50,213 nt of DNA from a virus (Duplodnaviria > Heunggongvirae > Uroviricota > Caudoviricetes): IMG/VR virus record IMGVR_UViG_2939521961_000003; one strand, given 5' to 3'. This document shows, in pieces, positions 12,001 through 18,000 of this stretch; the first letter of the stretch is position 1; every line of letters starts with the position of its first letter. A program made the position numbers.

Positions 12001-15000
12001 GTTAGATATTTTCACCAAATCACGACTCCGCATCAAAGTAATCGCAGACGTTCCAGACTCCCGCCGCCGCGACCTAGATAACATCCTGAAGGGTTTACTC
12101 GACTCCCTTATCCATGCCGGATTTGCGGAAGACGACGAGCAATTCGATGACATTCGCGTAATTCGTGGTGTGAAAGTACCAGGCGGACGGCTTGGAATAA
12201 AAATCACCGAACTGGAGAACGCATGAACGCCACAATTCAAACGATACCAGAGCTTCTTATCCAGACACGAGGCAATCAGACCGAAGTGGCGAGGATGCTT
12301 TCCTGCGCAAGAGGAACAGTGCTCAAGTACAACCGAGACAGCAAAGGCGAGCGTCATGTAATAGTTAACGGCGTCCTGATGGTCAAACAGGGCAAGAGGG
12401 GAAGACGATGAGACTCGAAAGCGTAGCTAAATTTCATTCGCCAAAAAGCCCGATGATGAGCGACTCACTACTGGCCACAGTTTATTGGTTTTCGTAACTG
12501 AGTCATTTTATTATTTTATTGCAACTTTTAATCTTTTATAGTGCGAAATAAATGGAGCTGGCATTCATTTCGCACTTTATGTTTTTGTTGGACTTATGTT
12601 ATTTTGATTGAATTCAATTCAGTTAAAAAAAGAAGGTGATTGCTCCATTTATAAATGAATAGTCATCCCCTGTCTTGAATTCTGATGTTACTTTATTAAA
12701 TGCTAGTGTGAAGGCTACAGGTGCATACCCAATTGTTGCGCCAACTTGATATTCATCAACAGTTTTGTTTAGCGATACTGTTGTTTGTTTCGTCTGTATT
12801 GTTTTTCCTTCGAGAGTATAGTTGCGATTGACATCTCGTCTTTCCATACCTGCAAAAATCTTGTATTTGAATCCGCTTGTATCGGACATATGCATTAAAC
12901 CACGGGGAGCCAGCAGACCAAAGCCATTATCCGAATTGAAGGTTTTATCATTACCAATGGCAATGGTTGCGCCATATGCTACATATTGAAATAAGTTTCC
13001 AGTAACAGCAGAAACTTCAGGGTATAATCCAACATTAGCACCTAAAATATCCATACTTGGTGTCATGGATAGCATCCCTTTTACAGTATAACCGTAGCGA
13101 TTCTCTATTTGATCATCCCATGCATGATATTTTTCTGCCCCAATAATCTCATGAGCTTTATTTTGTACTTTCTGACCGCCTGCGTCGGGGCCAACAACAC
13201 CTATGTCAGTACCTAATCGATAGCGAATCCAGTCATTCGCAAGGGAGTTCCATTCAATACCAGTGTGAGTGTATGCACTAAAAGCTCTGTCTCCAGTTAC
13301 AGCTGTGTTGTGTCTTTTATTACTGCCTGATGGAGAGTAAATATCTTGCGCAATATGGAGAGATAATTGGCTCGAGTCTGAGATATCGTGGCTATATCCC
13401 AGAAATAAGCCTTGTGAGTAATCATCTCTGTTTTCATGTTTATTGCCATAAATATCATTAAGTATTGGTTGAAACTTCCCTGCATCATCATTTGCTAATG
13501 ATAATGCAAGGCTGTTCGCGATAGCTGAACACGTGGTAAATGACAGAGCAATAAAGACGCCAGCGATGACACTTTTTTTCATATGTTATTGTCTTCCTTT
13601 TTTTTGAATGGTGCGCGTATTTTACATACATGAGTTTGTAATACAAGGTGCGTAATCAATATGATGTTTTATAATTGCGTGAGACAATTGATTTATTCGT
13701 TTTTTATTGCGGTTTTTATTATCTTTTAATGTAACGGTGTTTTTATTAAGTGTGTTTGCGTGGTGTTTTATGTTTTTTATAATTTTTATTTTGTTAAATT
13801 TAAAAGCATTAGTAATGGCTATTCTATATAGCAATATAAGAACTGTTACAAAAAAAGGGGGGGCAATTACAGGTAGTTATGGATGATGAGTGAAACAGAT
13901 ATTGGAGAACCGGGGAATGAATGATGTCTGAGTCTTATATATCAGAACTCCTTCGCTGTCGCTGGGGGCTCCTGTGCTTATGTCGTTTCCCCGATTCGGT
14001 TTTGAACGATTACCGAATGTTGAAGAATTATGCCAAAATATAGAAAGGATTTACTGCATGAATACCCAATATTTACAGTATGTTCGTGAGCAACTTATGG
14101 CAGCTACTGCTGACTTGAACGGAGCAACGAAAGGCCAGCTCGAAGCCTGGCAGGAGCATGCACAATTTGATACTGGTACATACAAACGAAAGAAGCCGCG
14201 CATTCTGGATGTGGTAACTGGCAAGATGATTACGCTGGATAATACGCCGACTTCCGGTAAGCAGTCGTACGCAAAAGGTTCATCCATTGCTTTGGTCAGC
14301 CCGGTTGAATTCTCAACCTCTTCATGGCGCCGCGCGGTTTTGTCTCTCGATGAACATCAGAAAGCATGGTTGCTTTGGTGTTACAGCGAAAGCGTTCGAT
14401 GGGGGCATCAGGTCACCATAACGCAATGGGCATGGAGCGAGTTTAAAGATTTGTTAAGTAACAGAAAAATTGCAGGTAAGACACTGGATCGCCTGAAGAC
14501 GTTAATCTGGCTGGCTGCACAGGATGTGAAGAGCGAACTTGCAGGGCGTGAGGCCTATGAATACCAGACACTGGCATCATTGGTGGGAGTGACAACAAAA
14601 AACTGGTCCGAGACATTTACTGAACGCTGGGTTGCAATGAAGCACATTTTTCTACAGCTTGATAGTGATGCTTTATTGCTTGTGACGAGAACACGTTCAA
14701 AACAAAAGGCAGCATTTTTACAGCAAAATATTGCAAAACTGGATTAAAAGCCATATACTTCATGCAAATTTGGTATGTTGTAAAAAATGTATAAACCCGC
14801 TGCCGAGTGGGTTTTTTTTATGCCCTGAGTTGTACTTGTACGGTAAACATGCTGGCTGCTATGTAATAGAGTTTTTTTAGCCTGTAACCTCTTGACGGCA
14901 TTGAATTGCTTTTGTTATGAGTTGTAAGCCAATGTTATCATCTTGTATTGGGGTGGTTATGAAGGATGGTGCGCTGCTCAGGAGTTCTTCACTTTTTATT

Positions 15001-18000
15001 GCCTACATGGGATGCCTTGGATGGGGGAGTGCTTATTTCTATGGATGGGGTACTTCTTTTTACTACGGCTTCCCATGGTGGATTGTAGGTGCAGGTGTTG
15101 ATGATGTTGCCAGAAGTTTATTTTTTGCAGTTATCGTCATTGCTATATTTCTTATCGGTTGGGGTATTGGTGTTGTATTCTTTTTCGCAGTGAAAAGAAA
15201 ACATTCTATGCAAGAGCTAAATGTATTTCGCCTTTATTTTGCTGTGGAATTATTGTTTGTGCCGGCAATTATTGAGTTTTCTATATTGAGACAGAAGATT
15301 CAGGTACCTCTTTTGCTACTGTCAGCAGCGATTGCGCTGGCGGTTACAATTTCGATAAGATCTTATGGGCGATTTTTATCGGTATCATGCTTCTATGATA
15401 AGCCATTTATAAAAAAACATTTTTTTGAGATTGTGATGATTGCTTTTGTGGCATATTTTTGGCTTTTTTCATTTCTGACAGGATATTACAAACCACAGTT
15501 TAAGAAAGAATATGAAATGATTAATTATAATGATGGTTGGTATTATGTTCTTGCTCGTTATGATAATTGTCTGGTTTTGTCTACTTCTTTCAATGCAGGT
15601 AGTAAAAGGTTTGTCATTTATCAATCAGCACAAGATAAGAATCTTCAGGTTGATATTGTAAGGACCAGAATTTAATTGGCTGCATAAATAATATTTTAAG
15701 TTGCAAGTTGGCTATTCGTAGGAATAGAACCTTAGGCATGCTGAATGCGTTTTCTGAACATTGTTTTATAAACTGTGTCTGCTTGCTGTTGTGATCCTGC
15801 TTTTAGTGATGGTGATGATGGATTTCACCAGCAGGATAATGTTGGTACTGACTGATGGCGCTCTGGTCTGCGGCATTGTGGTATTGCTGTGGCCGATGAT
15901 GAAAGAACAGAATGAATAATTCTTGACTTTTTTGTTTACTGTTTATTAAAAAATCAACCGCATGGTGAATCCTCCTTGGAGGGGCTAAATGATCGAGTTT
16001 TAAGGGCACGTAGCGAGTTCTGTTTGATCATTGCAGAACTTAGCGGGAGGCGCCATGCGTACATCACTAGTGTTATTCCTTTTATCATTTTCCTTGTGAG
16101 TTCTGGCTGCGCATTGCGCAGCCTTTTTTTTATGACCTGCCACTGGCAGATGGTCATCCTGTGATTTGATTCCGCTTCCGGCTTTTTAACTCTGTTCCTC
16201 TACACGGGAGAAATTCGATGTCGATTAAACATTACGATGTTGTCAGGGCGGCGTCGCCGTCAGACCTTGCGGAAAAGCTGACACACAAACTGAAAGAGGG
16301 CTGGCAGCCATACGGCGGACCGGTTGCCATTACGCCGTACACACTGATGCAGGCGGTGGCTATTGAAGGAGAGCCACAGGTCGGCCCTTCATCTGAGCCG
16401 GATTGGTACTACGTCATCGTACTGGCCGGGCAATCCAATGCCATGGCTTACGGTGAAGGGCTTACGGTGAAGGGCTTCCGCTGCCGGATTCATACGATGC
16501 TCCGGATCCGCGCATTAAACAGCTGGCGCGCCGCAGTACAGTGACGCCGGGCGGGGCTGCCTGCAGATATAACGATATTATTCCGGCTGACCACTGTCTG
16601 CATGATGTGCAGGATATGAGTACGCTGAATCATCCGAGGGCTGACCTGAGCAAAGGGCAGTACGGCTGTGTCGGCCAGGGTTTACATATTGCCAAAAAAC
16701 TGCTCCCGTATATCCCGAATAACGCGGGGATCCTGCTGGTACCATGCTGTCGTGGTGGTTCGGCATTTACCCAGGGCGCGGAGGGGACATTCAGCGAGTC
16801 CACGGGGGCCAGTCAGGATTCGGCACGCTGGGGGGTGGGCAAGCCGTTATATCAGGATCTGATTTCCCGCACAAAAGCGGCATTGCAGAAAAATCCCAAA
16901 AACGTTCTGCTGGCCGTCTGCTGGATGCAGGGTGAGTTTGACATGAGCGCCGCCACCCACGTACAGCAACCTGCGCTGTTTACAGCCATGCTGACACAGT
17001 TTCGTGCTGACCTCTCCGTGTTTAACGCGCAGTGCCATGGTGGCAGTGCTGCAGATGTGCCGTGGGTTTGTGGTGACACGACGTATTACTGGAAAAATAC
17101 ATACGCTACCCAGTACGACACCGTGTACGGCGGGTATAAAAACAGGGAGAGTGAGGGCGTTTATTTTGTGCCCTTCATGACAGACGGTAACGGCGTCAAT
17201 ACCGCCACTAACGCGCCGGCAGAAGATCCGGATATTCCGGCATCAGGATATTACGGTGCGGCATCGAGAACGAATGGAAACCAGGTATCATCAAACCGCC
17301 CGACACATTTCAGTTCATGGGCGCGCAGGAGCATTATTCCGGATCGTCTGGCAACCGCTATTCTGAACGCAGCCGGGCGCACCTCAGCCTTCATCAGTGG
17401 TAAGGCACCGGAAATCAAACCCTCGCCCGGCGGCAACACGCCATCGGGTCCGTTTGCAGATACGTCCGTTCGCACAATCTCCCTGCTGCCGGCAGCCGGA
17501 GAGGCTGCTGCGCAGGGCTGGAGCATTAAGGATGGCGGAATTCAGTTGTCAGATGGTGTATTTAAGATCACCAAGCAGAGCAATAAAACCTGGTCCCTGA
17601 CGCATCCGGTGGATGACGCAATTACCCTGCTGACACAGGGCGGCAGACTGACCTGTAAGTTCCGCCTGTCAGGCGCACTGACCAACAATCAGTTCGGGCT
17701 GGGGATTTATCTGTATACGGATGCTCCCGTTCCTGATGGTGTGGCGATGACGGGTACCGGTAATCCGTTCCTGATGTCGTACTTCACTCAGACCACTGAC
17801 GGCAGAGTGAATCTGATGCATCACAGGAAAGCCGGAAACACGAAGCTGGGGGAGTTCGGCGATTACGGTAACGACTGGCAGACGCTGGAGCTGGTGTTCA
17901 CCGCCGGCAGTGCCACGGTTACTCCGAAACTGAATGGAGTGGCTGGCCCGGCATTCCAGGTTATAAAAGACAGTCTGACACTGGGACTGAATGCGCTGAC

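Follow-up and report, generated by a model that had tools for sequence, protein, structure and literature searches.

A predicted phage 82-type late switch and a TfpB-family membrane protein gene in a 434-like prophage of Escherichia coli

Genes and features of the locus

This report concerns a stretch of 50,213 nucleotides recorded as a virus of the Caudoviricetes (IMG/VR record IMGVR_UViG_2939521961_000003; "the window" refers to this whole stretch). Attention was given to the interval 14731–15675, where an antiterminator gene, Q, is followed by a late promoter (PR'), a terminator (tR') and a gene for a membrane protein of the TfpB family. Positions 14700–16200 were 100% identical to Escherichia phage 434 (OL657226.1, 41938–43438) by megablast, while local BLAST gave 99.1% identity to that phage over 12397–19346 and zero differences across 13858–16432. 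At the left end of the window the match to the attP/int region of 434 begins only at position 1331, and the right end matches elements other than phage 434; judged by these ends, the window is a 434-like prophage inside an E. coli chromosome and not a phage genome.

GenBank and the announcement of the 434 genome already contain the nucleotide sequence, the terminator, the label Q82-like and a "putative membrane protein", for which Pfam and NCBI family names also exist. For the interval itself our analysis is thus confirmation rather than discovery. It adds an interpretation, base by base, of the 82-type site of 434, an account of the mosaic junctions around it, a corrected start codon, a usable structure model with topology, and a survey of the contexts in which the TfpB family occurs.

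After Q, the gene order is PR' and tR', the open reading frame (ORF) for the membrane protein, a DUF3927/TciB ORF, an element resembling a small RNA (sRNA) with its own terminator, and a DUF1737-SASA esterase gene followed by lysis genes. The features on which the argument depends are the following:

12623–13582, minus strand: lpxR, first in the gene order around the switch
between lpxR and Q: ylcG
14058–14747, plus strand: Q antiterminator gene of the phage 82 type, 229 aa from MNTQYL (maximal ORF from 13974)
14731–14736, plus strand: PR' -35 hexamer TTGCAA, from a promoter scan
14737–14753, plus strand: PR' spacer of 17 bp, presumed Q-binding element
14754–14759, plus strand: PR' -10 hexamer TATACT
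14766–14791, plus strand: predicted initial transcribed region, with start A14766, pause element, A-rich tract and predicted pause at T14790/A14791 (+25/+26)
14793–14819, plus strand: intrinsic terminator tR', with a 9-bp stem (14793–14814), loop GCCG and a T8 run to 14819
14888–14958, plus strand: tfpB upstream cassette, with two overlapping sigma70-like promoters and a Shine-Dalgarno sequence
14892–14897 and 14913–14921, plus strand: candidate cassette promoter 1, TTGACG with TGtTATGAG
14912–14917 and 14933–14941, plus strand: candidate cassette promoter 2, TTGTTA, 18 bp, TGtTATCAT (scan-reported, with an extended -10 TG)
14959–15675, plus strand: tfpB/STM1630-family gene, 238 aa (maximal ORF from 14917, 252 aa)
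18530: pinholin gene, downstream of the esterase gene
18736: signal-arrest-release (SAR) endolysin gene, downstream of the pinholin gene

The late promoter and its terminator

The Q protein matched Pfam family PF06323 (Phage_antiter_Q) with E = 1.7e-91 and, read from the MNTQYL start, is identical to the Q protein of phage 82 (X92588) at 203 of 229 residues (89%); it is annotated as Q82-like in OL657226. Its stop codon (TAA, 14745–14747) falls within the 17-bp spacer of PR', so that the Q-utilisation site lies where this 82-type gene ends. A first-pass annotation, made from the sequence without database searches, had placed a promoter overlapping the Q stop codon, a terminator and an ORF in this interval, and each was recovered where it had been put. 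Its description of the promoter as near-consensus does not hold: the hexamers match the consensus at 9 of 12 positions, and a scan of the window found 7 matches of this quality against 7.0 expected from shuffled sequence. The hexamer match is therefore no proof by itself, and PR' derives its credibility from homology to the late promoter of phage 82.

The comparison with phage 82 was based on two prophages of E. coli whose Q genes resemble that of 82 (L013 and L014), together with the verbal description of the 82 site (PMC5001585). A block comprising the last Q codons, the -35 hexamer, the 17-bp spacer, the -10 hexamer and the next 26 bases could be aligned to both prophages, with divergence beyond it. 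Within the block the -35 hexamer is identical, the spacer agrees at 15 of 17 positions, the -10 hexamer agrees at 5 of 6 (TATATT in the 82 type), and the start context AAAT is the same. The Q-binding element of phage 82 has been located between the -35 and -10 of its PR' (PMC4914094), and the conserved spacer is for this reason presumed to be the corresponding element here.

At the phage 82 promoter, sigma70 engagement occurs at a 21-nt transcript and pausing at +25/+26, in a sequence with an extended -10-like pause element, GCC at +15 to +17 and U at +25 (PMC5001585). Both 82-like prophages match this description, carrying GCC in the +15 to +17 columns and T at +25. In the window, TGgTATGTT at 14771–14779 (+6 to +14, with its hexamer at +9 to +14) aligns with the TGaTATTTT of the prophages, a difference of TATGTT from TATTTT in the pause hexamer, and T14790 at +25 aligns with their T. 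By this alignment, transcription would start at A14766 and a sigma70 pause would be expected near +25.

Besides the chance-level hexamer score, two points weigh against equating this site with that of phage 82. The +15 to +17 element is GTA (14780–14782) where the 82-like prophages have GCC, and a change from GCC to AAA at these positions in phage 82 cuts the pause half-life about 5-fold (PMC5001585); pausing and Q loading could thus be weaker or differently placed, and PR' may pause less firmly than the 82 site, or elsewhere. Start site, pause, Q binding and readthrough are, furthermore, drawn from homology. We regard GTA as a variant of the site and as no ground for rejecting the 82-type assignment.

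The terminator is strong, as first proposed. Folded alone, the tR' hairpin had a free energy of -12.5 kcal/mol against -4.2 ± 2.2 kcal/mol in shuffles (z = -3.8), none of the 200 shuffles being as stable, and a terminator is annotated in OL657226 at the equivalent of 14796–14821. Across the window, terminator-like sites numbered 4, with 4.2 expected from shuffles. Counted from the start site, the hairpin and T run span +28 to +54, which predicts a terminated RNA of about 52–55 nt; Q-dependent readthrough is predicted from homology.

This terminator does not belong to the 82-type block. In the 82-like prophages the hairpin is stronger (-17 kcal/mol), unrelated in sequence, and lies about 30 nt further downstream. 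Phage 2B8 (L012, 1787–2640), by comparison, has a lambda-type Q of 192 aa directly after a phosphatase gene and a lambda-like PR', and from about 14793/14815 rightwards it has tfpB, tciB and the esterase gene in common with the window at 97.8% identity. Its hairpin homologous to tR' is degenerate (-4.6 kcal/mol, no better than shuffles). Since conservation with the 82-like prophages extends to about +26 and identity with 2B8 runs rightwards from the terminator, the arrangement is, on sequence comparison, a mosaic in which an 82-type Q/PR'/pause block is joined to a cargo block beginning at the terminator. In the record of phage 434, the N-terminal part of a lambda-type Q is additionally annotated immediately before lpxR, on its upstream side (window positions ∼12400–12500). 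This leftover, together with the lambda-type Q that accompanies the same cargo in 2B8, suggests that a lambda-type Q module was replaced by an lpxR-ylcG-Q82 block.

Chance could in principle have produced the promoter and terminator pair, with late transcription starting elsewhere; a 9/12 hexamer score, sites at the shuffled rate and the departure from 82 at +15 to +17 are all what such an accident would give. We consider this very improbable, as the whole block from -35 to +26 is conserved with the 82-like prophages while the flanks diverge. The pair also occupies precisely the place that it has in phage 82, where a Q gene of the 82 type ends; shuffled sequences fold much less stably than the hairpin; and of 5426 complete E. 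coli genomes, about 630 retain the Q/PR'/tR' junction at ≥99% identity. The initial reading of the pair as a Q-utilisation site is well supported by the 82-type Q, by the aligned promoter, start and pause elements and by the annotated terminator, and 14731–14819 is very probably a functional 82-type late switch, operating as described for phage 82.

In such a switch RNA polymerase would initiate at about A14766 from a presumably constitutive promoter, sigma70 would re-bind TGgTATGTT, and the complex would pause near +25. Without Q, termination at the hairpin and T8 run would release an RNA of about 54 nt. When present, the 82-type Q would bind the spacer element, load on the paused polymerase and carry it past tR' and later terminators, and Q-modified transcription would then enter tfpB, tciB, the PasD-type sRNA region, the esterase gene and the lysis genes. 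In lambdoid phages, 82 among them, late promoters act constitutively and give rise to short terminated RNAs (PMC7547250).

The layout also resembles that of Shiga toxin (Stx) phages, in which a constitutive late promoter is terminated just downstream and cargo lies between tR' and the esterase-holin-endolysin genes (PMC7547250). Here tfpB lies between Q/PR'/tR' and the esterase-holin-endolysin block, and the early suggestion that it occupies the toxin slot was borne out. The cargo differs, being transfer RNAs and stxAB in Stx phages and tfpB, tciB and a PasD-type sRNA here. The short late-promoter RNA of Stx phages is an Hfq-binding sRNA, StxS (PMC7547250), of 258 nt processed to 74 nt, whereas the RNA predicted here is about 54 nt.

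The short PR' RNA (14754–14823, plus strand) weakly resembled the Salmonella sRNA STnc240 in Rfam, below threshold, with 28 bits where the gathering score is 55 (E = 0.12). Both have an A-rich tract, a hairpin and a U run, and STnc240 may itself be a prophage late-promoter RNA. We did not accept a 49-aa ORF at 14731–14880 as a gene, given its overlap with PR' and tR'. As a natural variant of the 82 Q-utilisation site, with a changed +15 to +17 element and a terminator 28 nt from the start, the 434 site could be used to probe the effect of pause strength and terminator distance on Q loading.

The tfpB gene, its product and its relatives

The ORF at 14917–15675 has a G+C content of 36%, compared with 50% for the window. 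Its length was first given as 252 aa, which is correct for the maximal ORF, but the start codon is most likely ATG 14959, giving 238 aa. The Met of this codon is the first residue in each of the 28 aligned family members, the NCBI PGAP pipeline places the start there, a Shine-Dalgarno sequence (GGGGTGG, 14950–14956) lies 3–9 nt upstream, and the homologue of enterotoxigenic E. coli (ETEC) has GTG at the same column with no upstream coding sequence in common. Start codons giving 252 and 247 aa were rejected in favor of ATG 14959.

DNA similarity to the ETEC plasmid copy sets in at 14888, which is 71 nt ahead of the ATG, and the TTGACG and TTGTTA hexamers are conserved, so that the two copies have an upstream promoter-like cassette in common. 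For Salmonella STM1630, which is macrophage-induced, a -10 box of its own has been mapped (bioRxiv 10.1101/689075). From the sequence we infer that the cassette has promoter activity and, given its retention in ETEC and the mapped STM1630 promoter, that lysogens express the phage gene from this promoter of its own, with further expression following Q readthrough. Most likely, TfpB would be made in the lysogen and its production boosted after induction.

Phage 434B, in which Q, the late promoter and the lysis region are replaced by DLP12 sequence, was propagated normally (PMC9119081). As 434B does not encode the TfpB protein, the gene is dispensable for lytic growth and is on these grounds an accessory moron. 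Of the earlier description as a late-expressed moron, the second part stands, given the low G+C content and the absence of the gene from 434B, while purely late expression is not supported, in view of the gene's promoter-like cassette and the STM1630 promoter. Classical lambdoid morons are bor and lom of lambda and gp15 of HK97. Like them, tfpB is accessory, AT-rich, equipped with promoter-like signals of its own, located between essential modules and dispensable lytically, and its predicted product is an envelope protein; in sequence and fold these morons bear no relation to TfpB.

Although the protein had at first seemed not assignable to any family, its membership of the TfpB/STM1630 family is secure by sequence. 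All 108 homologues found in a large protein database, including the 100%-identical P0001, carry the precomputed Pfam assignment PF27470, named TfpB, and PGAP gives the name "STM1630 family protein" to an identical protein, WP_001299184.1. The protein also matches phrog_1521 in PHROGs, which falls in the category of unknown function. Our own scans of the ORF with Pfam, NCBIfam and PADLOC gave nothing useful, the Pfam and NCBIfam copies scanned being without the PF27470 model. An NCBIfam match to CrgA (E = 0.46) and weak Pfam matches of distant members (Oleosin, MscS_TM and DUF6773) were set aside as noise.

The family is small, with 75 clusters at 50% identity recovered by an exhaustive profile search among 1.84 billion proteins. 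A pattern search over one genome per species found 27 loci, using an alignment minus the most distant sequences and the family motif W[SGA][SVT]AYx[YC][GN]W[GA]. Named members and loci all belong to the Enterobacteriaceae, Pasteurellaceae, Neisseriaceae (Neisseria) or Moraxella; by these assignments the family is restricted to animal-associated Proteobacteria. Its members have in common a length of about 240 aa, an N-terminal AY.YGWG...YYG.PWW motif, membrane helices and a C-terminal beta domain.

Close counterparts of the prophage gene are Salmonella STM1630 and the ORFs of the pINV plasmids of Shigella and enteroinvasive E. coli and of ETEC plasmids (237–238 aa, 46–59% identity), all with the N-terminal motif and the C-terminal domain. 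They differ from it in being chromosomal or plasmid-borne and not downstream of Q. STM1630 lies beside sseJ, and the Citrobacter rodentium copy, at a syntenic chromosomal site, lies beside lpxR, both C. rodentium genes having about 73–74% DNA identity to the window copies. Plasmid copies were found in 156 records, of which 106 were Shigella pINV, where the gene is beside spa40; on ETEC plasmids (L005–L009, 3987–5134) it is divergent from eltAB. One copy in Glaesserella parasuis (L022, 5955–8017) is convergent with the cytolethal distending toxin (cdt) genes, and other copies in Pasteurellaceae and Neisseriaceae have unrelated housekeeping neighbors. The window allele occurs at high identity in 692 of the 5426 complete E. 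coli genomes, in prophages of enterohemorrhagic and enteropathogenic strains (EHEC and EPEC), the sequence being identical in EHEC Sakai and EPEC E2348/69, and only 434 and 2B8 encode TfpB among 50,697 phage records. Genomes often hold two copies, and multiple copies are seen in Aggregatibacter and E. coli. Neither the Salmonella nor the Citrobacter copy is accompanied by a DUF3927 gene.

In Moraxella bovis (L032), a 261-aa ORF of similar length (tblastn E = 1e-19) carries the family motif and is collinear with query residues 9–236 at only about 27% identity; it differs from the prophage gene in its non-phage location, between two inverted pilin gene halves next to piv. M. lacunata (L035) has a truncated copy between pilin segments, adjoining a piv-like recombinase gene. 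We take these loci to be the classical tfpB ORF of the pilin inversion region, which has been known since about 1990 and to which, to our knowledge, no function has been assigned. A literature search for the name TfpB yielded mostly unrelated chemistry and anesthesia papers, together with a different Acinetobacter TfpB.

Some further observations were made on these contexts. In C. rodentium (L010, 4863–6717) lpxR and tfpB are direct divergent neighbors; in Salmonella (L011, 3349–5717) sseJ replaces lpxR at the same chromosomal site, upstream of alcohol dehydrogenase and chemoreceptor genes. In the prophage, ylcG, Q and PR' are inserted between lpxR and tfpB, and the history behind this may involve either a phage remnant or a captured islet. 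A 3054-bp contig (L015) of a metagenome-assembled genome labeled Veillonella sp. encodes a protein 100% identical to that of the window, and is almost certainly a mis-binned E. coli prophage fragment.

An AlphaFold2 model built from 44 sequences, including distant members, reached a predicted local distance difference test score (pLDDT) of 78.6 and a predicted template modeling score (pTM) of 0.71. It places helices at residues 4–36, 47–78, 89–111, 116–136 and 155–181, followed by a five-strand domain at 184–235. The multiple transmembrane segments and soluble tail proposed at the outset are thus reproduced in the model as five helices and a C-terminal beta domain of about 55 aa. Averaged over the 44 sequences, the loops after helix 2 (77–90) and helix 4 (135–156) are net positive (+2.1 and +2.3), whereas that following helix 1 carries a net negative charge; under the positive-inside rule these charges would put the N terminus in the cytoplasm and the C-terminal domain in the periplasm. 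Five members of the Pasteurellaceae group carry a Cys pair in the C-terminal domain, which fits a periplasmic disulfide. We tentatively propose an N-in protein that crosses the membrane with five helices and ends in a small periplasmic beta domain of SH3-like type. Weighing against this model, a first prediction from 28 close homologues was poor (pLDDT 57.9), the topology was assigned by charge count with no dedicated predictor, and the C-terminal domain is itself slightly net positive, which weakens its periplasmic assignment.

G175 is the sole invariant residue, and the absence of any conserved polar residue across the wide family argues against an enzyme. Searches of the PDB and BFVD returned no credible fold relative, only sub-threshold SH3-like and MscS-type hints. 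No transporter or channel family matched by sequence or fold, and a housekeeping transporter, a match to which the first-pass annotation had named as contrary evidence, was rejected after profile and structure searches. A holin or antiholin was rejected likewise: neither Pfam nor PHROGs gave a match to a holin, antiholin or lysis family, 434B is without the gene, and most homologues lie far from lysis genes.

Proposed role of TfpB and neighboring elements

We read the locus as the late switch of a 434-type lambdoid prophage followed by an accessory cassette with TfpB as an inner-membrane lysogenic-conversion protein, a reading to which we give a probability of roughly 0.6. TfpB would probably act alone at the cell envelope and benefit the host-associated bacterium by lysogenic conversion rather than serve the phage life cycle. 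Such a role is suggested by the restriction of the family to animal-associated taxa, by its company of virulence cargo, by its own promoter cassette and by its stable chromosomal orthologues. The company consists of eltAB, sseJ, lpxR, the spa40 region of pINV and, in Glaesserella, cdt; lpxR is a Ler-regulated gene in EHEC (PMC9263587).

Three considerations count against this role. It is drawn from distribution and neighbors alone; deletion of STM1630 gave no growth or macrophage phenotype (bioRxiv 10.1101/689075); and around the Pasteurellaceae and Neisseriaceae copies no conserved partner gene was found, the neighbors being unrelated apart from one cdt operon. The family is small and widespread in EHEC/EPEC prophages, Shigella virulence plasmids, ETEC toxin plasmids and Salmonella, and phage 434 versus 434B, or versus a clean deletion, offers a simple genetic system in which TfpB is easy to test. 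We know of no function assigned so far to any member.

Prophage-encoded inner-membrane exclusion proteins exist, and superinfection exclusion or abortive infection, whereby TfpB would block entry of incoming phage DNA or kill infected cells, had been raised as a possible role. The gene is prophage-borne, accessory, low in G+C and often present twice per genome, its predicted product is an inner-membrane protein with an exposed small domain, and defense genes also scatter as single-gene islets, as TfpB does in Pasteurellaceae. The idea gained no support and we judge it unlikely. PADLOC matched 0 families at E up to 1, the PHROG is of unknown function, and only 2 of 50,697 sequenced phages carry TfpB; many members are at stable syntenic chromosomal sites (Salmonella, Citrobacter) or on virulence plasmids, and the named members all come from animal-associated taxa, unlike most defense genes.

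The same single-gene islets and multiple copies, along with restriction to crowded mucosal niches, would be explained if TfpB were an orphan immunity protein guarding the inner membrane against a bacteriocin or contact-dependent toxin. In Pasteurellaceae and Neisseriaceae the gene stands alone, with no partner conserved beside it; it occurs repeatedly in Aggregatibacter and E. coli and encodes a polytopic membrane protein without conserved catalytic polar residues, and its prophage neighbor carries the TciB-like annotation "resistance to colicin". None of the copies examined, however, had a cognate toxin gene next to it, nor was there sequence or fold similarity to known immunity proteins, and the TciB label is a database name and not a tested function. 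We hold this proposal to be improbable.

A part in the phage late programme, such as lysis timing or cargo release, would suit the first gene of a Q-dependent late transcript, upstream of a pinholin and SAR endolysin, in a slot used for stx by Stx phages and with homologues beside eltAB and cdt. We rate it lower still. Phage 434B grows without the gene, holin and lysis families gave no match, most members occur in settings that involve neither a phage nor lysis genes, and the adjacency to toxin genes is anecdotal, in divergent or convergent orientation.

A more speculative proposal, which we think improbable, is that TfpB is a companion of mobile virulence cargo that aids the tolerance, deployment or release of toxins or surface variation, with the ∼54-nt PR' RNA acting as a StxS-like sRNA. 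If true, it would explain why tfpB is found in the Stx slot and beside eltAB, cdt, sseJ, lpxR, the secretion region of pINV and the Moraxella pilin switch. The adjacency of tfpB homologues to eltAB and cdt echoes the Stx-slot position in lambdoid prophages; adjacency to toxin genes may reflect only shared mobile-element history.

Apart from the lysogenic-conversion gene we propose, the following neighboring elements were recognized:

14723–14736, minus strand: CII-box consensus TTGCAATATTTTGC of a candidate paQ antisense promoter, overlapping the PR' -35
15761–15919, plus strand: gene for a DUF3927/TciB-like small membrane protein of 52 aa (PF13064, E = 3.4e-14), second gene of the moron block
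15930–16134, plus strand: candidate PasD/STnc100-type sRNA (Rfam RF02076), directly upstream of the esterase gene

The CII box overlaps the palindromic -35 hexamer TTGCAA of PR', and OL657226 annotates a CII site and the -35 of paQ at 14723–14736. Exact TTGCN6TTGC occurs twice in the window against 3.6 expected, which is not above chance; the other occurrence, at 2698–2711, is in the int/xis region, the region where pI of lambda lies. Should the box be real, CII would drive anti-Q transcription while occupying the -35 of the late promoter.

The TciB-like protein matches phrog_1470 and is annotated TciB in OL657226. The match of the sRNA candidate to RF02076 (STnc100) is full-length, at 41.4 bits (gathering score 47; E = 3.5e-7), and its terminator combines a hairpin at 16105–16123 with a T8 run (-15.9 kcal/mol). 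According to a preprint, PasD sRNAs are relatives of STnc100, and in phage 2B8 pasD immediately precedes the gene for the esterase, Q and LpxR being conserved in its neighborhood (10.64898/2026.05.13.724894). Given the STnc100 match, the terminator and the position before the esterase gene, the 62-aa "putative membrane protein" annotated in phage 434 at the equivalent of 15976–16164 may instead be an sRNA gene.

Relative to phage 434, the window carries a 14-bp tandem duplication at 16445–16458 (GGCTTACGGTGAAG repeated). The duplication frameshifts the gene for the DUF1737-SASA (NanS-p-like) esterase into ORFs at 16218–16544 and 16541–18082, and the esterase gene is probably a pseudogene in this prophage.

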